Position numbers and translations under genes: made by a program
Shown here: piece after piece, positions 8,892 to 53,606 of the stretch
How the letters are laid out: each line of letters starts with the position of its first letter
Position numbering within the stretch: the first letter of the stretch is position 1
The notes under the pieces: model-generated
Databases searched by the model: none
What the model was told of the DNA's origin: nothing
Seen by the model: only the letters and a program-made list of their open reading frames with translations
Origin: Deltaproteobacteria bacterium
GTDB taxonomy: Bacteria > Desulfobacterota > Desulfarculia > Adiutricales > Adiutricaceae
DNA length: 53,606 nt
Reading direction: 5' to 3'
NCBI GenBank assembly: GCA_031278835.1
Contig: JAITJP010000028.1
Coordinates: forward strand, 1-53,606

Positions 8892-8914
8892 GGCCATAAA
8901 AAAATGGCCAAGCC

Positions 8915-11085: not shown

Positions 11086-11484
11086 GAATGGTAATCCTTG
11101 GAAATTATATCTTTTAAGCGCGGCCGGCGGCCCAGCTCAAAAATCAAGATTGGGCCTCTGGCCCGACCAGGTCAAAAGCTGACCTCTGACCCGGTCTAAA
11201 AATGCCCCGTAAAGGCCTCAAATCGCCCCGCCAGGGCCATTTTGAAGCAAATGGCCCCTTTACCCCAGGGTCCGGGCTCCCAGAGGCCTACAGGGGCTTT
11301 AAAAACGATCTGGCCCAGAGCCAGAGCTGGGCCTGGCCTTAGGGCTAAATCATCATAACAAAAAACCAGCCAAAATGAACTTCCAGCTGGTCGAAAAAGG
11401 GGCGATTTTAAGCTGTCAAGAAAAACTTGGCCCGGGCCATTAAACTTACAAAAGTTTGGCTCCATTTCTTGGAGAGTAATTTTT

Positions 11485-15542: not shown

Positions 15543-16066
15543 AAAAAAACTTTATTTCCGCGAAAAAAGGGCGCCCCTGGGCCCAGAGATCTGGCCCCTG
15601 GCCCAGAGACCTGGCCCAAAAATTTAGTCAAAGCTGTTAACAGTTTATGGACTAAAATATATTATAATATAGCCCTAGCCATTACAACAAAAAGTTTTTC
15701 CAATCAATGATTCATCACTTAGTGGTCTTGTTTAAACTCTTTTATCAATAACGTAACTACTTAATATCGCTAAAACATGATAAATTTCATTGATAGGGCT
15801 AAGCAAAGTTAGCCCTGGTCCAACCGTCCTGATCATGGGGCCCATGGCCCCGTTCAAGTCAGAAAAAAAACTTTTTTTAAACCAGGGGGGGAGCGGCGCT
15901 GACAACAAATTGTAGCCACAAAGACCAAAAAAGTAAACGAATTTTGGGCTTACTTTAAGCTGGCCCGGCCCTAAGCGCTATTTGTGGGCCAAAATTTCCA
16001 GACCAGCCCCGCTTATGGTGGTCAGCCCAAAGCCCAGCTGGGGCCCCAGCTGAGTTTTTTTTGGCC

Positions 16067-18415
16067 TTAGGGGGCCGTAAGTTTGGAGTAGCGAATCATG
16101 ACTTTTTTCTCGCCATATTGCTCAAAATCTATGATGGCCGTGCCGCCGCTCACCGCCTTGACCTGGCCCAGGCCAAAGCCGGGATGAATGACCTTTTGCC
16201 CGAGGCTTAGTTCCAAAAGAACCTGGCCCTTATGGGGTTTGGGCCTAGCGGGGCTTTTTTTCTGGGCCTTTTTGGCCGAATCTTCAGCTTCGTCAAAGAT
16301 TTGCGATCCATGGTCCTGGCTTAAAAACTCATCGATTTGCGAGCCGTCGTCGTTGGCGAAAATATCGCTTTGGTCCTCATCATCATCAAAAAACTGACTG
16401 CCGCCTCTGGGATTGGCGATGGGCCGTTTTTTCACCTGGTGGGCGCTATGAATGACTTGACTGGTTTCCTCAAAAAAATCCCCGTCATGGTTGTCACTGT
16501 CATGGATAAGCTCAACCAAGTCATGGTCAATTTTGGCCAGAAATCTGGTCGGGCCGTTATTGGAGGCCCCCCAGGAAGGGCACCACAGGGGCATGGTGAT
16601 GACCAAACGGTCTTGGGCCCTGGTCACGGCCACGTACATGAGCCGAAGTTCTTCTTCGGTTTCCGTGGCCTTGGCGTAAGAGGAGGGAAAACGCCCCTCC
16701 ACGGCTGAGATCAAATAGACCCGGGGCCACTCCAGGCCCTTGGCCGAATGTACGGTGGATAAGGTCAGATCGTTTCTCTCGTGGCCTTGGCCCACGCTTA
16801 AATTATTGGGCGGATCCAGGGTCAAATCGTCCAAAAAGGCCACTAAACTAGTGGCCCTTTCGGCCATGGGCTTAAATTCTTTCAAATCCATCAAGCGATC
16901 CGGGTGATCGTCTGGGTAGAGTTCCGGGAGCTTGGCTGAATAATATTTAAAAACCAGTTCGGTCACTTCCTTGGGCCCAAGATCCTTTTGGCTTATGGCC
17001 ACCAAGAGATCTTTAAGCTCAGTTAGGCCTTCCTTGGAAGCGCTCCTAGTAAGCTTGGCTTGGTCCAAAAGGCCCATATAATCGGGGTTGGCCAAAGCCC
17101 AGTTGACTATCGAGTCAAGGCTTTTGGGCCCCAAACCGTGAACGTGAATGAGTACCCGCCTTAGGCTAATTTCATCAAAGGGGTTAACCGAAAGGCGCAA
17201 ATATGAGAGAAAATCCTTGGTGTGGGCTGATTCCAAAAATTTGCGGCCGCCAAATTTGGTATAGGGGAGGCGGCGTCTGACCAGCTCGGCTTCAAGCTCA
17301 AAGGAGTGAGAACTGGCCCTAAAAAGCACGGCCATATCCGGTAAACTTAAGCCGCTCTCCAGATCAGCCTCGATCAAGTCAGCCACCCTGATGGCTTCTT
17401 GATGGAGATCGGCCAGGGTGATTATTTTGACCAAGGGGCCGTCGGTCCTGGTTGGCCGTAGAACTTTTTCAAAACGCTCCTGGGCTTGGCCCAACAAATG
17501 ATTGGCCACGTATAAAATTTGCGGGTGGCTTCGGTAATTTTCTTCCAGGGTTAGAATTTTGGTGCCCTGGTAGATATTGGGAAAATCAATGATGTTTCGA
17601 AAGTTAGCCCCCCTAAAGGAATAAATCGACTGGGCCTCGTCGCCCACGGCCGTGACGTTTTTATGGCCCAAGCCCAAAAAGGCGGTTATTCTGGCCTGAA
17701 TGGCGTTGGTGTCCTGATATTCATCGACCAAAATGTAATCGTAACGGGCGGCGATTTCATTTTTAACCTCTTCATTTTGGATCAGTAATTTTTCAAAGTA
17801 AAAAAGCAGATCGTCAAAGTCCATGAGGTTTCTTTGGGCTTTTTGAGTCCCGTAGGCGGTAAAAATTCTCTCCAGGCCAGGGGTAAAATCCTGTAAATGG
17901 GGATATGATTTTTTAAGTACTTGGCTGACCGTTAAATCTTTGTTAACGGTTTGGCTAAAAATATTTTGAATGGTGTCGCGTTTGGGAAACTTGGCGTTCC
18001 TAGAGGCGGTGTGTTCTTCGCTTCTGATTTTGCCCAATAAGCTTACGGAATCGTCCCTATCCATGATGACGAAACGGTTGGAAAAGCCCAGCTTAGGGGC
18101 GTAGACCCGCAAAATGGAATTGGCCAGGGCGTGAAAGGTGCCCCCGGCCACCCGGCCCTCCATGCCGCCCAAAATATCTTCGCAGCGGCTTAACATCTCC
18201 TCGGCGGCTTTACGGGTAAAGGTTAAAAGTAAAATCGATGAGGGGGCGATGCCCTGGTCGATTAACCAAGCCACCCGATAGACTAGGGTCCTGGTCTTAC
18301 CGCTCCCGGCCCCGGCCACGATCAAAAGCGGTCCCTCCATGTGCGTGGCCGCTTCATACTGGGACTGGTTTAATAGGCCCTTTAAATCGAGCCTGGGTTT
18401 ATGAATAAAGGTCAT
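16067..18415 (-). CDS. UvrD/PcrA/Rep-family SF1 DNA helicase with acidic linker and Tudor-like C-terminal domain
   Basis: Walker A AGAGSGKT. Motifs DEYQDT and VHSAKGLEW. D/E-rich stretch FFDDDEDQSD...DEAEDS. The C-terminal GQKVIHPGFGLGQVKAV resembles the PcrA/UvrD C-terminal Tudor fold. Confidence 0.9.
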   Translation of the reverse strand: MTFIHKPRLDLKGLLNQSQYEAATHMEGPLLIVAGAGSGKTRTLVYRVAWLIDQGIAPSSILLLTFTRKAAEEMLSRCEDILGGMEGRVAGGTFHALANSILRVYAPKLGFSNRFVIMDRDDSVSLLGKIRSEEHTASRNAKFPKRDTIQNIFSQTVNKDLTVSQVLKKSYPHLQDFTPGLERIFTAYGTQKAQRNLMDFDDLLFYFEKLLIQNEEVKNEIAARYDYILVDEYQDTNAIQARITAFLGLGHKNVTAVGDEAQSIYSFRGANFRNIIDFPNIYQGTKILTLEENYRSHPQILYVANHLLGQAQERFEKVLRPTRTDGPLVKIITLADLHQEAIRVADLIEADLESGLSLPDMAVLFRASSHSFELEAELVRRRLPYTKFGGRKFLESAHTKDFLSYLRLSVNPFDEISLRRVLIHVHGLGPKSLDSIVNWALANPDYMGLLDQAKLTRSASKEGLTELKDLLVAISQKDLGPKEVTELVFKYYSAKLPELYPDDHPDRLMDLKEFKPMAERATSLVAFLDDLTLDPPNNLSVGQGHERNDLTLSTVHSAKGLEWPRVYLISAVEGRFPSSYAKATETEEELRLMYVAVTRAQDRLVITMPLWCPSWGASNNGPTRFLAKIDHDLVELIHDSDNHDGDFFEETSQVIHSAHQVKKRPIANPRGGSQFFDDDEDQSDIFANDDGSQIDEFLSQDHGSQIFDEAEDSAKKAQKKSPARPKPHKGQVLLELSLGQKVIHPGFGLGQVKAVSGGTAIIDFEQYGEKKVMIRYSKLTAP

Positions 18416-18491
18416 GTCAATAAATCAAAGCCTTGGCCCAAGGGCCAAGCTTTCCAGGTCTGGCCGGCTACTTTGGGGCCAGGTTTAATGG

Positions 18492-20102
18492 TTAAAAGTC
18501 AAGTTTCGGCCCCTTAGTTTCGGCCCCTTGGGTCAAAAACTCGGTCACCGCCGCCACCAAAGAATCAATGGTGGCGCTTTTGGCCTCGGCCACCACCTTA
18601 AAGCCCAGCTCCTGGGCGGCTTTGGTGGTGATCGGCCCAATGGAGGCCACCTTGACCAGGGGGCGATTTTCCGGGCCAATGTAATTAGACAGCCCCTGGG
18701 CCGTGCTGGCGCTGGTCAGGGTGGCTAAGTCTAGGGGCCGTTGGTAAAAGGAAGTTTTTTGGTCTCCGGTTAACTGTTTATTATATCCAATAAAACTTAA
18801 ATTTTCAAATCCTGACCAATCGGCTATAAGGGTCTCATATAAGGGGATTAGATCTATTTCAAAGCCTAAATTACTTAGCCCCAAAACCAAGGCCTCTCGG
18901 GCCTCCTTGGCCCGGGGTAACAGAACCGGGCCCAGGGGCAGATCTTCAAAAAGCTTGACCAAGCCCTCGGCCACATAGCGGCAGGGCATCAGATCGGCCA
19001 CCAAACCAAAAGTGCCCAAGGCCTCGGCCGTGCCCGGCCCAATGGCGGCAATGGACAGGGCGTGAAGGGCCCGGCTATCGAGCTTGGCTTCAAAAAGGGC
19101 CTTCATGAAAAGGTTGACTCCGTTTGGCGAAGTAAAGATTAAATAGCGGTACCTGGCTAGATTATTTAGAGCCTGGTCCAGCTCCAAATTAGGCCAAAGG
19201 GCCTTAATCTCAATTGAGGGTCTTTCCACTACCTCGGCCCCCAGATCCCTTAAAGCCGCCGACAATCGGCCGGCCTGCTGCCTAGTCCTGGTGACCAGTA
19301 TTCTTTTGCCAAAAAGGGCCCTTTTTTCAAACCAGTTCAGCTTATCCCTTAAACTGACCACCTGGCCCACCACCAAAAGGGCCGGACTATTAAGGCCCAA
19401 TCTCTTGACTTCATCAAAAAGCCCCTCTAATCTGCCCACGGCCACCTTTTGCCGGGCCGTGGCCCCCCATTCGATTAAGGCGGCCGGGGTCTGGGGATCC
19501 TGGCCAGCTCCGATTAAATTTTCTAAAATCATACTTAAATTTTCCAGGCCCATGACCACGGCCAAGGTGCCCAGCTTAACCAGGGCCTCAAAATCCAGGG
19601 CCGAATAGCCCTTGCCGGCCTTTTCATGCCCAGTCAAAATGCCAATCTGTGAGCCCATATCCCGATGGGTTAAGGGTATGCCGGCCGCCCCAGCGGCGGC
19701 GATGACCGAGCTCACCCCGGGCACCACCTCAAAGGGTACCCCGGCCTCAAAAAGTTCCAAGGCCTCCTCGGCCCCTCGGCCAAAGACATAGGGATCCCCG
19801 CCCTTAAGTCTGACCACCGTCTGGCCCTTCCAGGCCTCCTCTACCAATAGCCTATTGATTTCCCCTTGCTTTAAGGTGTGATGGCGGCCGCTCTTCCCGG
19901 CGTAAATTTTCCTGGCCCCTTTGGGGGCTAAATGTAAAAGCTCCGGCGAGGCCAAATAGTCATAAACCACCACCTGGGCCCGGCCCAAAACTTCGGCTCC
20001 CCTTAAGGTTAAAAGGCCCGGATCGCCCGGCCCGGCCCCAACCAAATAGACCTTGGCCGGCAAAGCCCCAGGGCCCTTTCTTTCATTTCTTTCAATACTC
20101 AA
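18492..20102 (-). CDS. cobA-hemD: Fused uroporphyrinogen-III C-methyltransferase / uroporphyrinogen-III synthase
   Basis: N-terminal SUMT motif VYLVGAGPGDPGLLTLRG. A C-terminal HemD-like half of about 250 aa (KRILVTRTRQQAGRLSAALRDLGAEV). Confidence 0.9.
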   Translation of the reverse strand: MSIERNERKGPGALPAKVYLVGAGPGDPGLLTLRGAEVLGRAQVVVYDYLASPELLHLAPKGARKIYAGKSGRHHTLKQGEINRLLVEEAWKGQTVVRLKGGDPYVFGRGAEEALELFEAGVPFEVVPGVSSVIAAAGAAGIPLTHRDMGSQIGILTGHEKAGKGYSALDFEALVKLGTLAVVMGLENLSMILENLIGAGQDPQTPAALIEWGATARQKVAVGRLEGLFDEVKRLGLNSPALLVVGQVVSLRDKLNWFEKRALFGKRILVTRTRQQAGRLSAALRDLGAEVVERPSIEIKALWPNLELDQALNNLARYRYLIFTSPNGVNLFMKALFEAKLDSRALHALSIAAIGPGTAEALGTFGLVADLMPCRYVAEGLVKLFEDLPLGPVLLPRAKEAREALVLGLSNLGFEIDLIPLYETLIADWSGFENLSFIGYNKQLTGDQKTSFYQRPLDLATLTSASTAQGLSNYIGPENRPLVKVASIGPITTKAAQELGFKVVAEAKSATIDSLVAAVTEFLTQGAETKGPKLDF

Positions 20103-20391
20103 TTGCCTAGGCCTCCAAAACCCTTGAGGGGGGCTATTTAATTTCCTTTAATAATTACTTTTCGCAAATATCTTAACTTATTTAAATCCATCAACTCTCA
20201 AAACATTCCCCAAAAAACTGCCAAAAAACTCAGACCTAGCCCCTTTCCCGGTCCCTAAAAAAGCCGCCTCGGTCTCAAAATTTAGAGCAAAAAAAAGACT
20301 TCGGCCCCGGTTGGGACATCAAAGTCCAGGCTCGGCCCAAAGGCCTGTCATGGTATTGTTTGGTCAAAAAAAACCAAGCCAAAAACTTAAG

Positions 20392-37873: not shown

Positions 37874-38803
37874 ATGAGAATGCCCAGTCAAGAAAGTTAC
37901 GACGCCGACAAAACCGTGGTCAAGCCCCTGGGGGCTTGGCCCAGCCAGCCTCATGATCCGCCCTTTAAGGTGGTGGCCAGAGCCCCGTCAAAGGCCTCGG
38001 CCTTGGATCAACCCTATATTGGTCAACAAAGTTCTTTGGAGGGCTACCCCAGTGGCATAAATCCTCTAATTGAGGCATCTTTCCCCTTATTAACTGAAAT
38101 AATTAATCTACGTAAGGGAGAACAGGAAAATTTAGAATGGCTAAGGCAGACTTTTGAGACCGGAATCAGGGCCTTTGAGGCCAAGGCCTTAAATAGCCTT
38201 ATTGATCGCTCCCAGATCCTGGCCGCCCGTTACCTTTTGTGCACGGCCTTGGACGAAAGCGTGACCATGTCCTCAATTGAGGATAGCGCCGCCTGGGCCC
38301 ATGAGGCCCTTTTGAGTACCTTTCATGACGAGACCTGGGGCGGCGAAAAATCCTTTAAGATTTTAGAGCGTTGCATGCAGCATCCCGCCCAAAACTTATA
38401 TTTATTGGAACTAATTTACGTCCTAATTAGCCTGGGTTTTGAGGGCCGATACCGGGTCATGGAAAGGGGTATCCAGGCCTTGGAAGCCCTAAGGGACAAA
38501 GTTTACCAGCAGATCCGCATCCTTCGAGGCGAGCCCATCTTGGATTTGGCTAAACCAGTCGATAAGGTCGAAACCGTCAATCCCCTGCACCGTTATTTGC
38601 CGGTTTGGCTGGTCCTGGTTTTGGCCCTCCTGGTCCTGGCCATCAGCTTTGTGGGTTTTTACTTTACCCTAAAAACCCGGGCCCAGCAGGTCTTTGAGGC
38701 CTACCAGACCTCAAACCAGATAAGCTCAAATCAGTTGAGCTCAACTGATTTGAAGCTAAGCCAAATTGAGCTTGGCCAAATTAAAACCAGTGATGAGAAC
38801 TAA
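37874..38803 (+). CDS. tssL: T6SS membrane-complex protein TssL (DotU family), no peptidoglycan-binding domain
   Basis: DotU core (NPLIEASFPLLTEI..., ARYLLCTALDESV). A single C-terminal TM helix (WLVLVLALLVLAISFVGFYF). A short Ser/Gln-rich tail. Confidence 0.85.
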   Translation: MRMPSQESYDADKTVVKPLGAWPSQPHDPPFKVVARAPSKASALDQPYIGQQSSLEGYPSGINPLIEASFPLLTEIINLRKGEQENLEWLRQTFETGIRAFEAKALNSLIDRSQILAARYLLCTALDESVTMSSIEDSAAWAHEALLSTFHDETWGGEKSFKILERCMQHPAQNLYLLELIYVLISLGFEGRYRVMERGIQALEALRDKVYQQIRILRGEPILDLAKPVDKVETVNPLHRYLPVWLVLVLALLVLAISFVGFYFTLKTRAQQVFEAYQTSNQISSNQLSSTDLKLSQIELGQIKTSDEN

Positions 38804-42372: not shown

Positions 42373-42633
42373 ATGCCAAACTTTGCCCGCTTAGGCGATA
42401 AAGTCAGCTGCCCCAAATGCGGAGCCCAGACCATTGTCTCGGCCTCGCCCACGGCCAAGATTAAAGGTGTGCCCATAGCCCGGGTAGGTGATCAAATTAG
42501 TTGCGGTTCAATCATTACCACGGGCTCAGACCTGGTCAAGGTTGACGGAAAACCGGTGGCCCTGATTGGCTCCAAGACCTCCCACGGCGGGGTGGTCTTG
42601 GAAAACGGTCTGACCGTTTCCACGAAAAGTTAA
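42373..42633 (+). CDS. PAAR-domain spike-tip protein
   Basis: 86 aa. It has repeated A-R-x-G-D elements (FARLGDKVSC and IARVGDQISC) and HGGVV, as in PAAR proteins. Confidence 0.85.
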   Translation: MPNFARLGDKVSCPKCGAQTIVSASPTAKIKGVPIARVGDQISCGSIITTGSDLVKVDGKPVALIGSKTSHGGVVLENGLTVSTKS

Positions 42634-42675: not shown

Positions 42676-43449
42676 ATGGCCGATAACCCAAATTTGACAG
42701 CCGCCCGTAGGCCCTCGCCCCAGGTGGTCTACCTGACCTCCTGGGGCTGGACCTTAACCGGAAACTGCCGAGAGGAAAACCAAGATTGCTTTTTAAACTG
42801 GCCCGAACGGCTCCTGTGGGCCGTGGCCGACGGGGTGGGCGGGGGAGAGGACGGGGCCTTGGCCAGTCAACTAATCATCCGTAGACTGTCGGCCCTGCCA
42901 ATGGCCCCCAGCCCAGAAGAAAACCTCCGGGCCATCAAAGAAGCCGCCTCCGAGGTTAACCAGGCCCTTTGGCGTAGGCGCTCTCGGGGTAAGCTTTGTT
43001 CCACCACCCTGACCGTTTTGCTGGCCCAAAACGACCAGGCCATCTGCCTTTGGGTGGGTGACAGCCGCTGCTACTTATCCCGGCAGGGGGCCCTTTACCA
43101 ATGCTCCAAAGATCATACGGCCCGGCAAAGCCACATCGACCAAGGCCTGCTCAGCCCCTGGGAAGCCCTTCGCATGATTAAGGGTAACCTGATAACCCGG
43201 GCCCTGGGTAGCCAGCCCGACCTGGAGCTCGAGCAGGTCGCCTTTGCCATCGCCCCCAGAGATCGCCTGCTTCTTTGCACCGACGGCTTGTCAAACCTGC
43301 TGTCCCCGGAAACTTTGTCAAATACCCTGGCCCGAGGCACCACGGCCAGATCGATTTCTTTAAAGTTTCAAGAGCTGATTAAAAACTTGCCCCAAAGGGA
43401 CAACATCACCCAGATAACCCTTTTGGTCTCAAAGCCATACCAGAAATGA
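42676..43449 (+). CDS. pppA: PP2C-family Ser/Thr phosphatase (PppA-like)
   Basis: WAVADGVGGGEDG, VGDSRCYL and LLLCTDGLSN are PP2C metal-binding motifs. Confidence 0.85.
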   Translation: MADNPNLTAARRPSPQVVYLTSWGWTLTGNCREENQDCFLNWPERLLWAVADGVGGGEDGALASQLIIRRLSALPMAPSPEENLRAIKEAASEVNQALWRRRSRGKLCSTTLTVLLAQNDQAICLWVGDSRCYLSRQGALYQCSKDHTARQSHIDQGLLSPWEALRMIKGNLITRALGSQPDLELEQVAFAIAPRDRLLLCTDGLSNLLSPETLSNTLARGTTARSISLKFQELIKNLPQRDNITQITLLVSKPYQK

Positions 43450-43553
43450 TTAGCCCAAACTTAAGCCAATAAAAAAAAACTTATGCCCAAGGCCTGAAAA
43501 AAAAAACACCTCCCAGGGCACTTTTGACTTAAGCCTGATTAGCGGTGATTGAC

Positions 43554-44447
43554 ATGGAACCTGTCGTAAATTTTATTGATTTAATCCCCATGGACCATTT
43601 ATCGACCAAGGCCTGGCCTGGCCTTGGGCCCGATTCTGGCCTCTCAGGGCGCTTTCTTCTGGGCCCATCGCTGGGGCAGGGGGCCATGTGCCAAGTCTTT
43701 GAGGCTATTGATCAAAGCCGGGCCCAATGGGGCGATGCCCAGCCCAAGGTGGCCATAAAAAAACTACTCCCAGAATTTCAAGAAAACCCCCAGGCCCGTC
43801 TGGCCCTGGCCCAGGAATTTTTTAAAGCCCGGGATCTGCTTCACCCCAATGTGGTTCGGGTTTACGACCTTCATCAACAAGATGGCCAGCTGATGTTTAC
43901 TATGGAACTCTTGTCCGGCCAAACCCTTAGGGATTATTTAAGCGCCCGGTCGCCCCGGCCCATCGACAAACTCAAGGCCGCCGCCCATCTATTTCAGGCC
44001 TTGGCCCACATTCACCAAAAGGGTTTGGCCCACGCCGACCTTAAGCCCGGAAACCTTTTCCTTTGCCCTGGCCGAACGGTCATCTTTGATTTTAACCTTT
44101 CAGTGGTCTGGCCGGCCGGCCAAGAAAAGGCCTCATCGCCCATCCAGGCCCTGCTTAAGGCCAAAAGCCTGCCCGGTTACACCATGGCCTACGCCAGCCT
44201 GGAGCGCCTCCAAGGGGCCCGGCCCAGCTTGGCCGACGATATCTTTGCCGCCAGCCTAACCGCCTACGAACTCTTGACCGGTAATCACCCCTTTTCGCGC
44301 CTTCCGGCCGACCAGGCCCAACAAAAGGGCCTTAGCCCCAAGCGCCCGGCTCAACTGGCCCGAAGGCCCTGGAAGTACCTTTTGGCCGGCCTAAGCCTTA
44401 AGCCGGACCAACGCCCCCAGGCCTCTGAGCTTAGCCGGGTCTTTTAA
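43554..44447 (+). CDS. ppkA: Hanks-type Ser/Thr protein kinase (PpkA-like), kinase domain only
   Basis: Gly-loop GQGAMCQV. VAIKKL lysine. Catalytic loop HADLKPGN (non-RD). DFN in place of DFG. About 297 aa with no TM segment or extracytoplasmic domain. GTG at 43545 is an alternative start. Confidence 0.8.
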   Translation: MEPVVNFIDLIPMDHLSTKAWPGLGPDSGLSGRFLLGPSLGQGAMCQVFEAIDQSRAQWGDAQPKVAIKKLLPEFQENPQARLALAQEFFKARDLLHPNVVRVYDLHQQDGQLMFTMELLSGQTLRDYLSARSPRPIDKLKAAAHLFQALAHIHQKGLAHADLKPGNLFLCPGRTVIFDFNLSVVWPAGQEKASSPIQALLKAKSLPGYTMAYASLERLQGARPSLADDIFAASLTAYELLTGNHPFSRLPADQAQQKGLSPKRPAQLARRPWKYLLAGLSLKPDQRPQASELSRVF

Positions 44448-44711: not shown

Positions 44712-45500
44712 ATGGCCCTACCCAAAGCGCTTTTATGTCTGCTCGGCTCAAGTGAGGCTTACTCAGGTGAGGCCGAAGAGCTCTCCCTTCGGGCGGTTGG
44801 CTTTGCCACGGCCACCTTGCGCTGGGCTGATTTTCGGCCTGAAAGTAACGATTGGTTGGGCTTATCAACCCTCTTGGAAGATCCCAGCCTCACGGCTTGG
44901 ATCCTGGCCGGGCCCTATGAAGAATTTAGCCCGCAAATCATAAGCCAGATCAGCCTGTTAAGCTTAGCCCTGGACCGAAAACCCTTACCGATTACGGCCA
45001 TAATAACCAAACTGGCCGATAAATCTTACCTGGAGTTGCCGCCCATCCTGGCCCACCTTAAAATTTTTGACCCCCTGGACCCTTACCCCGCTAAGCTGAT
45101 GGCCTATCGTTTTAAGCCGCCGGAAGACCTGGCCCGGCCTTTTTACTTAAAAACTTACGCCTCGCCCCTAATCGGCCTGTGGTTGGAAGTGGGCCCAAAC
45201 GAAAGCGAAAAATGGTCTGGCTTTATGTTGGCCGTTACCAAGACCCTAATTGAGGTTTTGGGGGTGGGCCCCCGGGGCCAGATCCCCAAAAAAAGTATTG
45301 TCAATTACCCCATGCACGGTCTGGAAGGCCATTTGGGCGATTTGAAATTTCAGGCCAGCGCCGCCAAAAACACCCTGGACGCCGAAACCAGCGCCTATAT
45401 CCACCTGGCCGGGCCCCCCAATCACCTAATCGTCGGCCCTTACCCCGAGGAAAAGCCCTCCGCTGAGGGCTCCTGGGCCCAAGTCTTGGCCCTAGCTTAA
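44712..45500 (+). CDS. Hypothetical protein (262 aa) embedded in the T6SS cluster
   Basis: A clean ORF on the same strand and with similar codon style to its neighbours, preceded by a 264-bp AT-rich spacer. The N-terminus MALPKALLCLLGSSEA is only weakly signal-like. I recognise no family motif. Confidence 0.6.
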   Translation: MALPKALLCLLGSSEAYSGEAEELSLRAVGFATATLRWADFRPESNDWLGLSTLLEDPSLTAWILAGPYEEFSPQIISQISLLSLALDRKPLPITAIITKLADKSYLELPPILAHLKIFDPLDPYPAKLMAYRFKPPEDLARPFYLKTYASPLIGLWLEVGPNESEKWSGFMLAVTKTLIEVLGVGPRGQIPKKSIVNYPMHGLEGHLGDLKFQASAAKNTLDAETSAYIHLAGPPNHLIVGPYPEEKPSAEGSWAQVLALA

Positions 45501-45691: not shown

Positions 45692-46213
45692 ATGCCTGTT
45701 CCCGCTTATCTCAGTATCACCGGCGAGCGTCAGGGCCTCATCACTCAAGGTAACTTTACCGAGGCCTCGGTTGGCAACATCTACCAAGAGGGTCACGAGG
45801 ACGAGACCTTGGTCGAGGCCTTTGAGCACCAGATCGTCTTGCCCCGTGATCCCCAGTCCGGCCAACCCACCGGCCAGCGCGTCCACAAGCCCTTAAAGAT
45901 CACCAAGGTCATCGATAAGTCCTCGCCCCTACTCTTTAGGGCCCTGACCAGCGGTGAGCGCTTGCCCAACGTGACCATGAAGTTCTATCGCACCTCGGCC
46001 TCGGGCACCATGGAACACTATTTCACCATCCAGCTGGAAGACGCCATCATCGTCGACATCACCAGCTACATGCCCAACTGCCAAGACCCCGGTCTGGCCC
46101 ATTTCACTCACCTTGAAGACGTCTACATGACCTACCGCAAGATCATCAAAACCCACGAGGTGGCCAGTACCTCCGAGAGCGATGACTGGAGAACCCAGTC
46201 CACGGCCGCTTAA
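45692..46213 (+). CDS. hcp: T6SS inner-tube protein Hcp
   Basis: MPVPAYLSITGERQGLITQG...EGHEDETLVEAFEHQIVLPRDPQSGQPTGQRVHKP...SDDWR is the classic Hcp/TssD sequence. GAGGAG RBS. Confidence 0.95.
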   Translation: MPVPAYLSITGERQGLITQGNFTEASVGNIYQEGHEDETLVEAFEHQIVLPRDPQSGQPTGQRVHKPLKITKVIDKSSPLLFRALTSGERLPNVTMKFYRTSASGTMEHYFTIQLEDAIIVDITSYMPNCQDPGLAHFTHLEDVYMTYRKIIKTHEVASTSESDDWRTQSTAA

Positions 46214-46731: not shown

Positions 46732-49317
46732 ATGGTCGCTTTATCAGCCAATCGGGGATGGTTTGAGATTGAGATTGAAGGCGGGCCCGAGTTCGGCGTC
46801 TACGCCTTTAAGGGCCGAGAAAAGTTAAACGAGCCCTTTGAATTTCAGGTGGAACTGGTCACCAAGGAGGCCAATATCGACCTGGTTAGACTGATGGGCC
46901 GTCAGGCTCTCTTGAGCGTGTTCGATCATAGCGGGCAAAAGCGCTTGATTAACGGCCAGATCCGAGAAGCCTTTCAACTGCACACCTCCACCACCTTTAC
47001 CCACTATATGATTATCATTGTGCCTAGACTTTGGTTTTTGGGCCAAAATCGAGAGCACCGGGTCTTTCAACATCTATCCGTTCCCAAAATCATTGAACAA
47101 ATCTTAAAAGAACAAAATTTTATCCACGAATCATACTCATTTAAGTTAAAAGAAAGTTATCCAGAACTGGAATACCGGGTCCAATACGGAGAAAGTGATT
47201 TGTATTTTATTAGCCGGCTATGCGAGGAGGAGGGTATTTACTTTTTCTTTGAGCACGCCCAGGGCTGGCAAACGGTTTGTTTTTCAGACGCCTCGGGCGG
47301 GGCCAATATTTCAGGCGAAAGCGATTTGCGCTTTTTTCCTGGCTCGGGGCAGCAGGCCGAAACGGCCGTAACTAGGCGCTTAAACCTTCACCAAAGGGTT
47401 AATAGCGATCTGGCCACTTACCGGGAGTGGAATTTTGACAAGCCCTCCCTTCACCTGGAAGTCTCCTCAAGTGAGCCGGATCAAGATAAGGCCCCGGCTC
47501 CGGGCGGCCTTAGCTTGGAGACTTATCAATACCCCCATCTCTACGATCTAAGCGATCCCGGCCATCGTTACGCCAAAATTCAGATGGGCCGTCAATTAAC
47601 CTTTAGCCGCTGGGTTGAGGGCGAAGGCGACGTTGCCCGCTGGCTGCCTGGTTTTGCCTTTAAGCTCCACGATCACCCCCGCTCTGAGGCCAATTGCCAG
47701 TGGTGGTTAACCGAGGTGGAACACCAAGGTGAGCAGCCCCAGGTCTTGGAGGGCGAGGCCCCGGACCGGGGTTTTCGCTACCAAAGCCGTTTCGTGGCCA
47801 TCCCCTTTGAGAGGCGTTTTATTCCCCAAATCCAACATCCCAAAGTTCGTATCGATGGCCTGCAATCGGCCATCGTCACCGGCCCGGCCGGCGAAGAAGT
47901 TTACGCCGACCAATACGGCCGGGTCAAAGTTATTTTTCACTGGGATCGTTTGGGCCCCAAAAACGAGCGCAGCAGCTTGTGGGTTAGGGTGGCCGATCAA
48001 TGGGCTGGACGAAATTTTGGCTTCATTCAAATACCCAGAATTGGCCAAGAAGTCTTGGTCGAGTTCATGGAAGGCGATCCCGATCGACCGGTCATAACCG
48101 GCCGAGTTTATAACGCCGAAAACCGGCCCCCCTGGAACCTGCCGGATCAAAAAAGCCTCTCGGGCCTTCAAAGCCGCGAGTTTATGGGCGGCCAGCGTAA
48201 CCAACTGGTTTTGGACGATACCCAAGGTCAAGTCCAGGCCCAGCTCTCCAGTGACCACCTGCTTTCCCAACTTAACCTGGGCTATTTGACCCGAATTAAT
48301 CACCTGGAAGGGCGCCAAGATTTTAGGGGCGAGGGTTTTGAACTTAGAACCGATGGCTGGGGAGTAATCCGGGCGGCTAGGGGCCTAATCCTGACCACCG
48401 ACGCCAGAGGCCGGGCCGGAGAACACCACAAAGACGCCTTTGAGGCCATCAATAACCTGCGGGCCGCCGCTGAGCAACAAAAAAATCAGGCCGAACTGGC
48501 CGAAGTTCATAACGCCAGAGACTATGGGCCGGAAGTTAAACCCCTGACCGATTCACTAACCAGTCAAGCCGAACAATTGGCCGGTCCCGGTCCGGCTCAC
48601 CAGGAACTGACCAGCCCCCAATTGGTCCTTTCCAGCCCGGCCGGTTTGGCCCTAACCACCCCGGAGAGCGCCCATATACACACCGGCAATAACCTGGCCC
48701 TAACCTCCGAGCGGCAAGTTTCCATTGCCAGTAACCGCGGTTTTTTTGTCACGGCTTTACAAAAAGTCAGTTTATTTGCCCACCGGCTGGGCCTAAAACT
48801 ATTCGCCGCCGCGGGTAAGGTGGAAATCCAAGCCCAAAGCGATAGCCTGGAAATGATTGCCGACAAAGTCATAAAAATCATCAGCGCCAAGGATAAAATC
48901 CACCTTTCCTCGCCCAAGGAAATTATCCTCACGGCCAACGGCAGCTACCTCAAAATCGATTCCTCTGGAATTGAATCCGGCACCAACGGCAAGTTTACGG
49001 CCCAGGCCTCGGCCCACAACTTTGTCGGCCCGGCTACCAAAGAAACCTTAACGGTGACCTGGCGAAAGGCCGATCCCCTGGTTACCCCCCGGGTGGTGGT
49101 GCGAGATCCCCTGGGTCATTTGATTGACGTCCCCCGCGAGGCTAAAAATAATTCCTCCGAGATAGACGGCCAGGCCACCGAACACCTCTTGCAACTCTTC
49201 CAAGACGATGGCCCCGAAGCCGAACTGACCGTGGTCGAGGGCAAGAATCGCCGGGAAATAATCGTCGATGGCTTTAACATAAAGCTGACCAAAGACAAGG
49301 CCACCAAAGACGATTAA
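46732..49317 (+). CDS. vgrG: T6SS spike protein VgrG with a ~100-aa C-terminal extension
   Basis: gp27-like N-terminus. gp5 OB motif GQEVLVEFMEGDPDRPVITGRVYN. Beta-helix repeats. The non-repeat tail begins at TWRKADPLVTPRVVV... . GGAGGG RBS. Confidence 0.95.
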   Translation: MVALSANRGWFEIEIEGGPEFGVYAFKGREKLNEPFEFQVELVTKEANIDLVRLMGRQALLSVFDHSGQKRLINGQIREAFQLHTSTTFTHYMIIIVPRLWFLGQNREHRVFQHLSVPKIIEQILKEQNFIHESYSFKLKESYPELEYRVQYGESDLYFISRLCEEEGIYFFFEHAQGWQTVCFSDASGGANISGESDLRFFPGSGQQAETAVTRRLNLHQRVNSDLATYREWNFDKPSLHLEVSSSEPDQDKAPAPGGLSLETYQYPHLYDLSDPGHRYAKIQMGRQLTFSRWVEGEGDVARWLPGFAFKLHDHPRSEANCQWWLTEVEHQGEQPQVLEGEAPDRGFRYQSRFVAIPFERRFIPQIQHPKVRIDGLQSAIVTGPAGEEVYADQYGRVKVIFHWDRLGPKNERSSLWVRVADQWAGRNFGFIQIPRIGQEVLVEFMEGDPDRPVITGRVYNAENRPPWNLPDQKSLSGLQSREFMGGQRNQLVLDDTQGQVQAQLSSDHLLSQLNLGYLTRINHLEGRQDFRGEGFELRTDGWGVIRAARGLILTTDARGRAGEHHKDAFEAINNLRAAAEQQKNQAELAEVHNARDYGPEVKPLTDSLTSQAEQLAGPGPAHQELTSPQLVLSSPAGLALTTPESAHIHTGNNLALTSERQVSIASNRGFFVTALQKVSLFAHRLGLKLFAAAGKVEIQAQSDSLEMIADKVIKIISAKDKIHLSSPKEIILTANGSYLKIDSSGIESGTNGKFTAQASAHNFVGPATKETLTVTWRKADPLVTPRVVVRDPLGHLIDVPREAKNNSSEIDGQATEHLLQLFQDDGPEAELTVVEGKNRREIIVDGFNIKLTKDKATKDD

Positions 49318-49356
49318 GGCTTTTGCCTAAAGCCGAAGCCAACCAAAAAAAGGTGG

Positions 49357-49467
49357 CCAAAAAGGTGGCTTGACCAGCCAAGCCAATCGACCAGTCTCAA
49401 AGTTAAGGCCGCCAAAAAGGTGGCTTGGCCGGGCCAAGTCAATCGACCAGTTTCAAAGTCAAGGCCG
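49357..49467. repeat. Two tandem copies of a 55-56-bp unit between vgrG and the downstream gene
   Basis: Units lie at 49357-49411 and 49412-49467 (ccaaaaaggtggcttgaccagccaagccaatcgaccagtctcaaagttaaggccg). A partial ccaaaaaaaggtgg lies just upstream at about 49343. Confidence 0.9.
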
Positions 49468-49519
49468 CTAAAAAAAATCCTCGCCAAAACCCACTAATAG
49501 AGCGAAAACAGAGAACATC

Positions 49520-52500
49520 ATGGGTAACGAGCCAATTCAAGATTCGAATTTTTATATAAACCTATGGGCCATCAAAGGGGTGATTCTATTTCCCGCTTTG
49601 GGAACCCCGGCCATCATTGAACCCAATGGTCAGTTGACCGTATACCTGGCCATGCAAAAACGGGCCTTTGATCGGCACACCAAGAATAATGGGGCCAGTA
49701 GTCCTGGGGCCCCGGTACCCATTGAGCTGGCCAGCTATTTCTATTTCCAGACCATGATTACCCCTTGGACCGATCGCGGTCGGGATTACGTTAATTACAA
49801 AAAATACTCCGATGAATTGGCCACGGAAGCGGCCGCTTCCAAGCGTTTTTACACCAGCTTTGAAAAAGCTCACCAGATGTTTAAACAAAAAAAATTCGGT
49901 GGCTTTTACGTCGGAGAATTTCAAAAGGATCAAGAATTCTTGGCCCAATATTACCCCTTGGAAGGCGACCTTAAACCGCAAGGTCCTTTTGGGGTGATCC
50001 ACAAAGAAGCCGTTAACATGTATCTTGACGGCCAATTAACCGAAACCGAGCCCAAAAAAGCCGCTGAGCCCCCCAGCGCTAAGGACCAGGAGGAGCCCGG
50101 GGTGCCGCCCGAAAATCTGGGCTATCGTTACGTTTTTCAGTTCACGGTCAAGGATTCTCCAAAACTGGCCCATCAAGGTTTATATGAGCTCATGTATTTA
50201 TACATAAATTACGCTCATTACTTTAAAGCCATAATTAATCGGCAAAAAAATGATCACTGGGTTTTGAAAAAATTTGGAGACATACACGATCATTATTTGA
50301 CCAATCCTGGCGATGATCTGGTTTCAAAGGTGATTATTAACGATCTAGAGGTCAAGACCAAGCAAATCAAGTCTGAGTCTAAAATCGTCAACACTTTTGA
50401 GTTTGAGCGCTGGCCTTACATGGAACCGGAAAAAATGAAACTGGTCAAGATTTACGATTCCGATCCCACTTTGGTCATGACTCAGGGCCAAAAAAATTTG
50501 GCCGGAAAACCAGACCAGGATAGAGGCGGGGGTGAAAAATCTTTGCACTATCTGTCCGATAAAAACGGCTGGTTCGTTCTTTCCAAGCACCCGGTTTACA
50601 TAACTGAAAAAAATTATCTTGACCTGGGCGTGGTCTCGGATCTCCATCTTTCCTCCAGGCAGGCCAGCTACAAACTTGTGGCCCCTCAGGTAATCCATGG
50701 GGTTATGGAACAAGATTCGCCCTATCTTGGAGCCCTATGTAACCAAGCCCTGGAAACGGCCCAGAGCCTGATGAAATCCATTGGCCAGGAAAGCGACCTC
50801 CTAATCGTGGCCGGCGACGCCTTTGACGTTCTTAGAAACCTGGATCCCAAAGTGGTGGAATCGAAAACCCTGGCCCTAAGACAAGCCGAGAGCCAAAGGG
50901 CGGCGGCCAACCCAGACCAAGTGCCTAGCCCAGAACCACCTGGGCCAGGTGATTCTGGGCCAAGCGGTTCTGGCTCAGCCCAGACCCCTAAAGCTGGCCA
51001 AGACCCAGACAAGCCCCCGCGGGAAATAAAATTGAGTACGGCCGAACTGTGGGAGCATCTGGATTTTAAAAAATATGAAGGCCAGGGGCCCAATTACCCA
51101 TTTTATATCGACGCCTTGATGTTTATGGCTTTGATATTTGACTATTACACCATCTCGAAAAAACCGGTTTTTTATCTAACCGGCAACCACGAGGCTTATG
51201 AGGTGCCCTACGGTATTTCGCCCAGACCAATGTTTATGAACAATAACATTATCGTCTTTCGGCCCAACGCCGGCATCCCCTCAGACCAAAATTTAACCTT
51301 TTATGAAGCCGCTTTATTGTTTGGCAAAAAATACAGCTTCATTGGCCGAATCGCCAATTTTAAAAAGGAAAATTTGGCTTGGGCTTACCGCTGGATTACG
51401 CCTTGGAAAGATTGCTTGGTAAATTCCGGTAAAAATCAAAACATGTTACTGATGGGCTGGGACGATGATGAAAATTATTTATTGTCAGCCCTGGCCGGAG
51501 GCGATTCTCTGCCCAGGGCCGGTTCGGCCATTACCGACCATCAGCTAAGCTTACTTAAGCGCATGACCGGCCAGGCTGACAAATTTAACCTAATGGCCTC
51601 CCATTTCACCTACGCTAATTTTGACCTGGAAAGCCCCTTGCATAGGCAAGATCGGCTCCGCTCCGGCTCTTGGATTTTACCCCTAAGAAAATCCGACACC
51701 GGCTCATTTGAGGAAAACCGCACGGCCGTGTATTCGGAACTGACCGGGGGGCGGGTTAAGCTGACCATCTCGGGTCATTCCCACCGAGGCGGCGCCTATA
51801 CCTGCTCCGGCGCTGGCCAGATCGATGGCTTGCGCCTTAATGGTTCGGCTGGAGCGGCTGGAGCGGGACGATCTGAAGGTTCGGAAGGTTCGGGAGATTC
51901 GGGCGGATTGGGCGGAGCCGAGGGGGACCAAGGGGTCAGCCTTACCCCGAGCGGGCGGGGACTAAAATCAGTCAATCCCCAAGAGCAGTTCCCGGGTTCG
52001 GTGGCTTGTCTGGTCTCAGGCTCGGCCGGGCTTTACTCGTATCAAAATCTCACCAATGGTGAGCTCTCGGACGTCGATAAACCCCAGGGCATGATTATAA
52101 AATGCGGCCTGTCCGGGGAGCTGGAAAGAGTTCACTACGTGCGAAACGAGAATTGTCCCAAACCGCGCCTGGCCGTGCGCTGCGATTACTTATGGTACGA
52201 AAATGGCATAGAAATGTTTTATCATGGTGATGAGGTTAAGGGTGACATAGTCGCTGAAGAAAAAAAGAAAGATTTAGAGCCTCAATACATGTTTTATTTA
52301 AACCCAGAGTGGCTTCGCTATCTAAATAATGGTAAAAGCGAGGAAAACCAAGCCCTGCCCATAGCTTACTTTCACCTCTACTGTATCAACAGAAAAAATT
52401 ACGAAACTTTTTCAACCAAAGCCCTAGCTCTTGAGATCGAGTCAGACGAGCCCACTTATCCGCTTGGCAAACATCGTAAAGTCCCGGCCTATAAACTGAC

Positions 52501-52777
52501 CAGTGGGCCGCAAGAAGTTATCAACGTCATGGGTAGGCGCTCTTTACTGGGCGATTTTGATGAGCAAACGGCTATTTTGTACTTTATATCGGTTCATTTT
52601 AATGAAAGCCACCCCATCGGCCAGCACTATGATCTTAAATCGCCTTGGTGTTACCCGGTGAATGTCACTTATGACCGAAAGATCATTACCAGAAAATTTG
52701 GCCGCGATGGTGAGTTGCCGCTATACTCGGAATTAAAGAAAATTCCCGAATATAACCCGACCGAAGGCAAAGAGTAA
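49520..52777 (+). CDS. Large VgrG-adjacent protein with a calcineurin-like metallophosphoesterase motif set; candidate T6SS effector
   Basis: DxH in VVSDLHLS (nt 50639-50647). GDxxD in VAGDAFD (50813-50827). GNHE in YLTGNHEAY (51182-51193). GHxH in TISGHSHRGG (51773-51784). No signal peptide. Low-complexity P/S/G linkers. Same strand as vgrG and 202 nt downstream of it. Confidence 0.7.
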   Translation: MGNEPIQDSNFYINLWAIKGVILFPALGTPAIIEPNGQLTVYLAMQKRAFDRHTKNNGASSPGAPVPIELASYFYFQTMITPWTDRGRDYVNYKKYSDELATEAAASKRFYTSFEKAHQMFKQKKFGGFYVGEFQKDQEFLAQYYPLEGDLKPQGPFGVIHKEAVNMYLDGQLTETEPKKAAEPPSAKDQEEPGVPPENLGYRYVFQFTVKDSPKLAHQGLYELMYLYINYAHYFKAIINRQKNDHWVLKKFGDIHDHYLTNPGDDLVSKVIINDLEVKTKQIKSESKIVNTFEFERWPYMEPEKMKLVKIYDSDPTLVMTQGQKNLAGKPDQDRGGGEKSLHYLSDKNGWFVLSKHPVYITEKNYLDLGVVSDLHLSSRQASYKLVAPQVIHGVMEQDSPYLGALCNQALETAQSLMKSIGQESDLLIVAGDAFDVLRNLDPKVVESKTLALRQAESQRAAANPDQVPSPEPPGPGDSGPSGSGSAQTPKAGQDPDKPPREIKLSTAELWEHLDFKKYEGQGPNYPFYIDALMFMALIFDYYTISKKPVFYLTGNHEAYEVPYGISPRPMFMNNNIIVFRPNAGIPSDQNLTFYEAALLFGKKYSFIGRIANFKKENLAWAYRWITPWKDCLVNSGKNQNMLLMGWDDDENYLLSALAGGDSLPRAGSAITDHQLSLLKRMTGQADKFNLMASHFTYANFDLESPLHRQDRLRSGSWILPLRKSDTGSFEENRTAVYSELTGGRVKLTISGHSHRGGAYTCSGAGQIDGLRLNGSAGAAGAGRSEGSEGSGDSGGLGGAEGDQGVSLTPSGRGLKSVNPQEQFPGSVACLVSGSAGLYSYQNLTNGELSDVDKPQGMIIKCGLSGELERVHYVRNENCPKPRLAVRCDYLWYENGIEMFYHGDEVKGDIVAEEKKKDLEPQYMFYLNPEWLRYLNNGKSEENQALPIAYFHLYCINRKNYETFSTKALALEIESDEPTYPLGKHRKVPAYKLTSGPQEVINVMGRRSLLGDFDEQTAILYFISVHFNESHPIGQHYDLKSPWCYPVNVTYDRKIITRKFGRDGELPLYSELKKIPEYNPTEGKE

Positions 52778-52968
52778 AAAAAATATTGATTGAGTTGATA
52801 AGATTTTTTCAAGGCGCTTGGTGGAGTTTTTGGAATCAAGGCGCCTGGTGAAGTTTCTTAGAATTTACTGGGCTTTTAGGCGGCTAAGCTGATTGATTCG
52901 ATTCATTTAATTGATTCGGTAAAAATTTGGTAAACCAAAAAACAGTCCCAATCACCGGAGGACGCTTC

Positions 52969-53606
52969 ATGGCCCTAAGCACAGATTTGATAACCGTAAA
53001 CATCACCGCGGCCGCCATGGCCGCCAACCCGGCCGGCTTGAGCGGAAAACAAATCACTTGCGACATAGATGGCGATTTTGTTTTAGAAAACGCCGTCATT
53101 AAAAGGGCCAGTTTCAACAATTCAAAAATCTGGCGCTCCACCATCAGAAACGTCACCTTTGAGAACTGTTCCTTTACTCGGACCCAGTTCATGAGCACCA
53201 CCTTTGAAAACGTCATATTTAAGGGCGGAAGCGTTAGCTATAGACCCGGTTCTCGCTACGATGATGACGAGGCCAGTTTTGAGGACGTCAGGTTCATAAA
53301 CGTGGTCATGGACGGGGTTTCTTTACACGAGGCTTATTTCCAGGTGACCAGCCGGGGCAATAATTTAACCCTTAAAAACTTAACTAACGTTAGAAACAAA
53401 TACGTGTCTTTTTATATTGGCAATTCAAAGTTGATCATCGACAACTGTAAGGCCAATAACGAATTGTTCGCCGTCCTAAGCGGCGAGCGGACCACGGTTT
53501 ATGTCAACAATTGTGAATTTACCAAGTACTCCGGCATTGGCGGAAACTGTAAGTCTTTGTTTATTAACAATTCGAAATTTTTACGTTTTTCTTATATTGG
53601 CGGCGG
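52969..53606 (+). CDS. Pentapeptide-repeat / beta-helix protein, 3' end outside the window
   Basis: This ORF is not in the track because it has no stop in the window. ATG at 52969 follows GGAG (52957-60). My translation is MALSTDLITV...VLENA VIKRA SFNNS KIWRS TIRNV TFENC SFTRT QFMST TFENV IFKGG. It has 5-residue periodicity, then about 22-residue N/C-rich repeats. Confidence 0.7.
   Translation, partial: MALSTDLITVNITAAAMAANPAGLSGKQITCDIDGDFVLENAVIKRASFNNSKIWRSTIRNVTFENCSFTRTQFMSTTFENVIFKGGSVSYRPGSRYDDDEASFEDVRFINVVMDGVSLHEAYFQVTSRGNNLTLKNLTNVRNKYVSFYIGNSKLIIDNCKANNELFAVLSGERTTVYVNNCEFTKYSGIGGNCKSLFINNSKFLRFSYIGG

Follow-up and report, generated by a model that had tools for sequence, protein, structure and literature searches.

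What kind of protein is encoded directly behind vgrG in a type VI secretion system (T6SS) cluster of an uncultured bacterium, and is it a toxin? The window analysed here, by which we mean the whole stretch of 53,606 nucleotides of contig JAITJP010000028.1 (GenBank assembly GCA_031278835.1), comes from a lineage of uncultured 'Deltaproteobacteria' known solely from metagenome bins. It holds a complete T6SS cluster, which is closed by a gene for a 1085-residue protein, the first gene after vgrG. We find that this protein is almost certainly an enzyme of the metallophosphoesterase (MPE) fold with an intact predicted catalytic centre, and that it is likely to be an effector delivered by the T6SS. 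Sequence comparison and structure prediction also lead us to favour, with moderate confidence, the fuller reading that it is a T6SS effector with an envelope-acting MPE phosphodiesterase, against which the pentapeptide-repeat protein (PRP) encoded next to it would confer immunity. A preliminary description of the window had put forward a candidate new type of T6SS effector after vgrG, a proposal that comparative genomics has supported and strengthened.

Fold and catalytic centre of the protein behind vgrG

The gene begins 202 nt downstream of vgrG on the same strand, in the adjacent position that the preliminary description had reported. In the public gene call for this contig the start lies 20 codons further downstream, which gives 1065 amino acids. 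We prefer the ATG at 49520 because homologs conserve residues before the later start (the alignment shows 'IxDSxFxxxxxxKGVILFP' upstream of it). The carrier gene, the protein and its parts, and the neighbouring partner gene are as follows, all on the plus strand.

46732-49317, +: vgrG, 861 amino acids, presumed carrier spike (Pfam and NCBIfam)
49520-52777, +: MPE protein, candidate T6SS cargo effector, ATG to TAA, 1085 amino acids
49520-50569, +: N-terminal region, residues 1-350; conserved family-wide, predicted local distance difference test (pLDDT) mostly >90, no known domain
50570-52204, +: expanded MPE core, about residues 351-895, boundaries approximate (PF00149; Foldseek matches 2xmo, 3ib7, 3d03 and 2yeq)
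50630-50653, +: MPE motif I, VVSDLHLS, residues 371-378 (D374-x-H376), invariant in the family alignment
50807-50827, +: MPE motif II, VAGDAFD, residues 430-436 (G432-D433-xx-D436), from motif position and family alignment
50879-51037, +: low-complexity insert rich in Pro, Ser, Gly and Ala, residues 454-506, between motifs II and III, from composition; variable or absent in homologs
51173-51199, +: MPE motif III, YLTGNHEAY, residues 552-560 (G555-N556-H557-E558), from motif position and family alignment
51590-51613, +: MPE motif IV, LMASHFTY, residues 691-698 (H695), from motif position and family alignment
51764-51793, +: MPE motif V, TISGHSHRGG, residues 749-758 (G752-H753-x-H755, then a near-invariant R756), from the family alignment
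51809-51967, +: low-complexity loop rich in Gly, Ser and Ala, residues 764-816, after motif V, from composition; variable in homologs
52205-52777, +: C-terminal region, about residues 896-1085; conserved Y1037, W1043 and P1067, no known domain
52969-53606, +: PRP partner gene, 5' part of 212 codons, cut by the end of the window; candidate immunity protein

The five motifs stand in canonical order, and every string and residue number given for them in the preliminary description proved exact. Its assignment of the protein to the MPE enzymes is borne out by Pfam, by an AlphaFold 2 (AF2) model and by Foldseek, which together place the motifs inside an MPE fold. The window protein scores 26.2 bits (E = 1.3e-5) with the Pfam family PF00149 (Metallophos), the gathering cut-off of which is 21.5; insertions make the match fragmentary. 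Among 50 diverse family members, 47 match PF00149 individually (best E = 9e-14), and some family members align to positions 2-190 of the 191-position model. Eleven residues, namely D374, H376, G432, D433, G555, N556, H557, H695, G752, H753 and H755, are invariant in 68 sequences that reach down to about 22% identity. The AF2 model, built from a 68-sequence alignment, has a pLDDT of 86 and a predicted template modelling score of 0.90; an earlier model from a 13-sequence alignment (pLDDT 46.5) was discarded. Low confidence is confined to residues 174-182, which form a loop in the N-terminal region, and to residues 468-492 and 776-800, where pLDDT falls below 50.

When this model was compared with the Protein Data Bank (PDB) by Foldseek, all 28 matches at E <= 1e-3 were MPE enzymes. 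The best were Lmo2642 (2xmo; E 8.6e-7, target TM-score 0.35), Rv0805 (3ib7; E 4.3e-6, 0.58), GpdQ (3d03; E 5.9e-6, 0.63) and PhoD (E 1e-5, 0.33), and purple acid phosphatases were also among the top matches. A fold search of the viral structure library BFVD likewise returned MPE enzymes only, with nothing for the N- and C-terminal domains. We presume that the window protein hydrolyses phosphoesters by means of a binuclear metal centre.

The preliminary description had called the active site split, and had located both a Pro/Ser/Gly-rich insert and a Gly/Ser/Ala-rich loop behind the GHSH motif. The two low-complexity stretches are where it placed them (residues 454-506 and 764-816), and the wide separation of motifs II and III is real. 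At 123 residues it is the family maximum, against a family median of 70, because it contains a lineage-specific insert, the core of which (residues 468-492) is the part predicted with low confidence. A truly split site is not what this amounts to, as the insert is peculiar to the lineage; even so, the whole family has an expanded MPE core. The flanking regions, described as unrecognizable, indeed have no Pfam match in either the window protein or the 50 diverse family members; yet both are conserved across the family, predicted to be well folded and packed on the MPE core. The N-terminal region carries the conserved strand motif 'KGVILFPALGTP', and P25 and P30 are invariant in the family alignments. 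This region may be a VgrG-docking or delivery module. Neither a signal peptide, the absence of which had been noted before, nor a transmembrane segment is found in the 1085-residue protein; its best 19-residue Kyte-Doolittle window reaches 1.7 and falls on a conserved beta-strand motif. One paralog in the family, P0011 (996 amino acids), has lost motif III ('VAGSLKARD' replaces 'GNHE') together with a stretch after motif IV, and is either a decaying copy or a pseudo-enzyme.

Family, genomic context and the pentapeptide-repeat partner

How far does this protein extend beyond one genome? A word-indexed homolog search had found 13 clusters and made the family look restricted to termite guts, a picture that was overturned by an exhaustive profile search. 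Of clusters at 50% identity, the latter yielded 438 at E <= 1e-3, of which 277 reached E <= 1e-30. A scan of one genome per species gave 62 loci. These are spread over Desulfobacterota, Gamma- and Betaproteobacteria, Myxococcota, Acidobacteriota, Bacteroidota and Ignavibacteria, and over Fibrobacterota, Verrucomicrobiota, Planctomycetota, Gemmatimonadota and others. The family is also carried by strains in culture, namely Formivibrio citricus DSM 6150, Sapientia aquatica SA-152 and two strains of Cupriavidus; cultured-strain orthologs are WP_177187885.1 (F. citricus), WP_133327775.1 (S. aquatica) and WP_400320864.1 (Cupriavidus). Public records name the members just 'metallophosphoesterase' or 'hypothetical protein', and NCBIfam has no model for the family. 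Export signals are virtually absent from the approximately 160 members inspected, P0090 alone having a hydrophobic N-terminal stretch. Some relatives are fused at the N terminus to Peptidase_M23, OmpA-like or PG_binding_1 domains, and LysM-like motifs were noticed by eye; a small PG_binding_1 protein is encoded directly upstream in two loci (L041 and L050).

The position after vgrG is shared widely. In every homolog locus fetched by protein identity (L001-L007) the gene follows VgrG, the two genes overlapping in two cases, and the arrangement VgrG-MPE-PRP holds for homologs down to 26-30% identity. The preliminary description had suggested tabulating homologs for proximity to vgrG, PAAR or hcp. 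T6SS genes are nearby in at least 27-36 of 65 distinct loci, which come from many phyla. The lower figure counts loci with VgrG, Hcp or Tss genes no farther than about 8 kb away; the higher one includes iterated-profile PAAR matches, not all of which were individually checked (that in L025 was confirmed by Pfam). Both T6SSi and T6SSiii types are represented: Ignavibacteria-type loci have the order MPE-PRP-ClpV-TssB-TssC-Hcp-VgrG with Pfam families of the T6SSiii type.

Some of these islands also carry recognized effector and immunity genes. The pair stands after VgrG and a Tle1-like phospholipase in L054, and after VgrG, an alpha/beta hydrolase and a Tli4 immunity protein in L053. An island with an M23-MPE fusion is ordered ClpV, LysM-VgrG, M23 protein, Amidase_2 protein, fusion, PRP, PAAR and DUF4123, and an OmpA-MPE fusion lies beside TssM, TssL, TssK, TssJ and Fha. 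The DUF4123 adaptor was seen near one distant relative only. At the M23-MPE fusion locus L070 (1958-4237), VgrG has an N-terminal LysM domain and the island appears to be dedicated to attack on the cell wall.

The second recurrent neighbour is the PRP gene. In the window its ATG is preceded at 6 nt by a GGAGGA Shine-Dalgarno sequence, and the encoded fragment matches the Pfam families Pentapeptide (28.9 bits, cut-off 20.2), Pentapeptide_3 (31.6 bits) and Pentapeptide_4 (36.9 bits), which its orthologs match too; in the PDB the partner matches entry 2w7z (E = 1e-4). The window fragment is 87% identical to the partner in L003 and 73% to the full-length partner in L001. A minus-strand open reading frame (ORF) of 110 amino acids that overlaps the PRP start (52884-53216) has no family support and is probably spurious. 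Full-length PRPs have about 390 residues, and their genes adjoin the MPE gene, before or after it, in 52 of the 65 loci.

Two types of pair, A and B, could be told apart. Within type A, MPE identity is 59-75% and partner identity 60-87%, and between types A and B the values drop to about 38% for the MPE and about 30% for the partner, figures which indicate that MPE and PRP co-diversify. One locus, L002, has the order VgrG-PRP(B)-MPE(A)-PRP(A)-MPE(B). The extra PRP gene was considered as an orphan immunity gene, a reading that we rejected because the cognate type-B MPE lies two genes downstream; a type-A pair has therefore been inserted between the two. In L001 and L031, two to five diversified MPE-PRP pairs stand in tandem, and in L046 and L065 a single MPE gene is followed by a run of 2-3 PRP genes. 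The array in L031 (uncultured delta proteobacterium, about 4769-20170) consists of VgrG followed by at least four pairs in which every PRP has a signal peptide; some of its MPE ORFs appear truncated or split.

Unlike the enzymes, most of the partners seem to be exported. Sec, lipoprotein or Tat (twin-arginine) signals were recognized in about 34 of the 52 loci. Examples of the lipobox are 'LLMTAC', 'FLILLLVAC' and 'LIAVISGC', and other partners have Sec-type hydrophobic N termini. The partners of Betaproteobacteria carry twin-arginine signals, and in most of these a lipobox is present as well; an example is 'MTTRRCFLAMLGMASLTITGC'. Effector-immunity pairs of the T6SS that act in the periplasm, Tae/Tai and Tle/Tli among them, are marked by this combination of a signal-less enzyme and an exported neighbour. 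Taken together, the balance of evidence leans, if by no great amount, towards the PRP being the cognate immunity protein of an MPE toxin.

Proposed activity, target and competing readings

If the protein is a toxin, what might it attack? We propose that the effector, synthesized without a signal peptide by computed criteria, would use its conserved non-catalytic domains, N-terminal, C-terminal or both, to dock on the VgrG spike, as gene order suggests, and would be fired into neighbouring Gram-negative cells. A metal centre formed by D374, H376, D433, N556, H695, H753 and H755 would then break a phosphodiester or pyrophosphate linkage of some envelope-associated molecule, and the PRP would bind and block the enzyme. 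Our best guess at the substrate is a membrane-anchored lipid; the bond could belong to the head group of a phospholipid or to a precursor linked to undecaprenyl pyrophosphate, for example lipid II. We favour such a lipid because the nearest folds are phosphodiesterases and because the partner occurs on either side of the inner membrane: the PRP is periplasmic in most lineages and cytoplasmic in the clade of the window, so the toxin may reach its substrate from either face. The export signals of the partners and the peptidoglycan-binding fusions of relatives point to the cell envelope. For this particular protein an envelope or membrane-lipid target is nevertheless a tentative assignment, to which we give somewhat less than even weight. 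The broadest version of the hypothesis, in which the family would form a large, phylum-spanning class of T6SS toxins that cut phosphate bonds of envelope lipids from either membrane face and are countered by PRP beta-helix immunity proteins, we regard as speculative and, in all its parts together, rather unlikely.

Several observations weigh against the proposal of an envelope-acting effector with PRP immunity, and the first set concerns the partner. In about 16 of the 52 loci, those of the whole window clade included, the PRP has no signal, and the location of the partner therefore gives no support for periplasmic action here. It is mainly for this reason that we keep the site of action of the window protein open. 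The window PRP begins 'MAL-STD...' exactly at the mature start, 'C-STD...', of the distant lipoprotein in L007 (L007:5006-6295, '...LLMTAC-STD...'). Moreover, the PRPs otherwise described in T6SS serve as accessory factors in the cytoplasm (TvpB and TagAB), not as immunity proteins.

These points raise the possibility that the MPE is an effector and the PRP an accessory or loading factor, or a co-secreted partner, with a true immunity gene that is unrecognized or absent, as might be the case for a eukaryotic target. PRPs are established T6SS accessory components (PMC13373197, PMC13584744), a PRP without an export signal could meet the effector in the cytoplasm, and the co-variation of MPE and PRP would fit a specific chaperone equally well. 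However, the approximately 34 exported partners would be incapable of chaperoning a cytoplasmic cargo, the window and the related loci examined lack the companion genes of the Tvp system (DUF2169 and DUF3540), and the runs of PRP genes after a single MPE gene resemble immunity arrays. We consider this alternative improbable.

The same lack of a signal in the partners of the window clade would suit a cytoplasmic target, in which case the enzyme might be an Mre11/SbcD-like nuclease or a nucleotide phosphodiesterase that is neutralized by a cytoplasmic PRP, possibly through DNA mimicry. Mre11 and SbcD are among the fold and sequence matches, and the closest solved PRP relatives include the Qnr, MfpA and McbG group; Qnr and MfpA are pentapeptide-repeat proteins that mimic DNA. 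Against a nuclease, the fold matches to Mre11/SbcD are at E = 2e-3 or weaker, about three orders below those to phosphodiesterases (about 1e-6), and thus rank far behind phosphodiesterases and phosphatases; the SbcD sequence match (E = 0.05) covers only the motifs GDxxD and GNH and is not significant. There is no capping domain and no SbcC/Rad50 gene near the MPE gene, most partners in the family are periplasmic, where DNA is absent, and relatives have peptidoglycan-binding fusions. The partners are near neutral (pI 5.1-8.6), with no marked net negative charge, and because of this and of their mostly periplasmic location we rate DNA-mimic immunity low. A cytoplasmic nuclease or nucleotide phosphodiesterase in the window clade thus receives a low probability from us.

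By the same comparison, the list of targets in the preliminary description (DNA, nucleotide messengers, lipid A precursors and phosphoproteins) can be narrowed: phosphodiesterase and phosphatase folds lead over Mre11/SbcD. The lipid A enzyme LpxH aligns only around its GH(S/T)HR motif, at a non-significant E of 0.15-0.5, and is not in the top 50 fold matches; the 'GHTHR' resemblance, at E of about 0.2, was not adopted. PDB sequence searches with the window protein and with family profiles gave no significant match. Because no specific MPE subfamily is matched significantly in sequence, the substrate cannot be assigned by homology, which is a second point to be set against our proposal of an envelope phosphodiesterase.

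The third set of adverse observations concerns context. Between 29 and 38 of the 65 loci have no T6SS marker in their flanks, many of them on short contigs. On some long contigs the upstream gene encodes an FG-GAP giant, an OmpA-domain giant or a tail-fibre-like protein, and in Cupriavidus and Sapientia the pair lies among metabolic genes. Nor did Pfam find MIX, FIX, a PAAR fusion or a DUF4123, DUF1795 or DUF2169 adaptor in the MPE protein or its window neighbours, although such a marker is not obligatory. Two loci of Acidiferrobacteraceae (L014:1836-7133 and L018:2924-7057) have giant FG-GAP-repeat proteins of 1765 and 1377 amino acids before the pair in place of VgrG, and in L030 the upstream gene is tail-fibre-like (Peptidase_G2 and Peptidase_S74). 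Systems different from the T6SS may deliver members of the MPE family as well.

With so many loci lacking T6SS genes nearby, the protein could be no toxin at all and instead a T6SS-associated or general envelope-maintenance phosphoesterase that stands near vgrG by chance; it might, for instance, remodel wall or membrane so that the secretion machine can be assembled. Peptidoglycan-binding fusions could suit a remodelling enzyme, and the public label is just 'metallophosphoesterase'. A periplasmic housekeeping enzyme, however, needs a signal peptide, which virtually none of the members inspected has. The tandem arrays hold diversified paralogs, each accompanied by a partner that co-varies with it, a pattern typical of the evolution of toxins and their immunity proteins. 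The neighbours are bona fide effector or immunity genes (Tle1-like, Tli4, M23, Amidase_2, PAAR and DUF4123), and the family is rare and patchy rather than core. A maintenance role is in our judgement very unlikely. Orphan pairs outside T6SS loci also bring to mind a two-gene module, for anti-phage defence or of the toxin-antitoxin kind, that often ends up in variable islands of the T6SS, and MPE nucleases occur in some defence systems. No PADLOC model matches either the MPE or the PRP, though, and VgrG adjacency is strong; in most lineages the MPE is cytoplasmic and the PRP exported, and two components in different compartments would make no sense for an intracellular module. Of a defence role we are accordingly most sceptical, and think it extremely unlikely.

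Comparison with known systems and the surrounding cluster

Is such an effector known already? The small bacterial MPE phosphodiesterases that match the predicted core best in structure, GpdQ (a glycerophosphodiesterase of Enterobacter aerogenes), Rv0805 and Lmo2642, share its five metal-binding motifs and their order. They differ from the window protein in being only about 230-410 residues long, whereas the latter has 1085 residues with approximately 350 extra at the N terminus, 190 extra at the C terminus and large insertions in the core. Identity to the window protein is 7-13%, and these enzymes are not secreted toxins and have neither a T6SS context nor a PRP partner. Mre11/SbcD and LpxH belong to the same MPE superfamily, with weak sequence matches (E = 0.05-0.5) and a lower fold rank.

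Among T6SS systems, Tle/Tli pairs resemble the MPE-PRP pairs most in layout. In both cases a signal-less enzyme gene follows vgrG, a neighbouring immunity gene encodes an exported protein, often a lipoprotein, tandem arrays are formed and the target lies (or, for MPE-PRP, would lie) in the envelope; MPE-PRP pairs even share VgrG islands with Tle1-like and Tli4 genes. The Tle fold, in contrast, is that of an alpha/beta-hydrolase or a phospholipase D and not a binuclear MPE, the immunity folds differ, and hydrolysis of lipids by the MPE family is a hypothesis. TvpB and TagAB resemble the PRP partner in their pentapeptide repeats and in being encoded next to vgrG. They are cytoplasmic and occur with DUF2169 (TvpA) and with DUF3540 or DUF6484 (TvpC); the PRP partners, by contrast, are mostly exported, and no DUF2169, DUF3540 or DUF6484 gene was found in the window or related loci, where the only matches were sub-threshold ones inside VgrG.

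Should the MPE toxin cut an undecaprenyl-linked pyrophosphate, the lipid II phosphatase TelC of the type VII secretion system and colicin M would be possible functional analogues. Both are toxins whose target, a lipid carrier that contains phosphate, is attacked outside the cytoplasm (PMC5555719, PMC6193138). Their folds and secretion routes are unrelated to those of the MPE family, whose link to lipid II consists in peptidoglycan-related fusions and neighbours only.

The preliminary description named no MPE-fold T6SS toxin, and no characterized one came to light in our full-text literature searches, which miss most papers in subscription journals. The sole trace is a single-sentence, unverified mention of 'metallophosphatase' effector candidates predicted downstream of VgrG in Neisseria (PMC12046857). 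The idea there is the same, an MPE-type domain in a VgrG-linked gene, although that mention gives no family definition, partner or mechanism. The layout of the system (VgrG, cargo effector, immunity gene) is on this reading ordinary for a T6SS, and it is the catalytic fold of the proposed toxin and the presumed immunity fold that are unusual.

The discovery of T6SS effectors has repeatedly yielded new antibacterial chemistries and drug targets. If our proposal is correct, the T6SS arsenal would gain a catalytic class in the form of a toxin family with the MPE fold, and both the toxin chemistry and the immunity fold would be new to contact-dependent antagonism. PRPs, the functions of which are mostly obscure outside the Qnr/MfpA group, would gain a new role, and the combination of MPE and PRP would serve as a marker pair for finding orphan effector loci. 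A wall precursor or membrane lipid as substrate would indicate a vulnerable step of envelope biogenesis. The family is also of interest as a large, widespread and unannotated one with members in T6SSi and T6SSiii systems and in cultured strains, which allow direct testing.

The T6SS cluster that precedes the candidate effector gene was delineated by Pfam and NCBIfam scans. Its genes are ordered TssA, TssB, TssC, TssE, TssF, TssG, ClpV, Fha, TssJ, TssK, an ORF at 37874-38803, TssM and then PAAR; the features located individually are these.

24034-46213, +: T6SS main cluster (Pfam and NCBIfam scans)
37874-38803, +: ORF, probably TssL, by position and from DotU orthologs in related loci
42373-42633, +: PAAR
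42676-43449, +: PP2C phosphatase
43545-44447, +: Ser/Thr kinase (PpkA-like)
44712-45500, +: conserved ORF of 262 amino acids, between the PpkA-like kinase and hcp
45692-46213, +: Hcp

The VgrG of the window matches Phage_GPD (4.5e-77), T6SS_Vgr (2.8e-34), DUF2345 (3e-51) and also Phage_base_V, as well as TIGR03361 with 511.9 bits, and extends about 93 residues past its DUF2345 domain. The 262-residue ORF has no Pfam, NCBIfam or PADLOC match and is kept at the same position in L001 and L003 (phmmer 5e-129 and 5e-141); it may be an unrecognized T6SS accessory gene.

Three minor features of the window deserve mention. In the intergenic region between vgrG and the candidate effector gene, at 49350-49474, a unit of about 55-56 nt stands twice in tandem, with 88-90% identity between copy pairs of 42 nt and 26 nt; inverted repeats did not come to light in this region. 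At the opposite end of the window, positions 1-4000 have a G+C content of about 40%, compared with 45-58% elsewhere, and few long ORFs were called there. Next to this stretch, an ORF on the plus strand at 4010-5836 encodes 608 amino acids, unusually long for the TetR family, with an N-terminal TetR_N helix-turn-helix as its sole recognizable domain.

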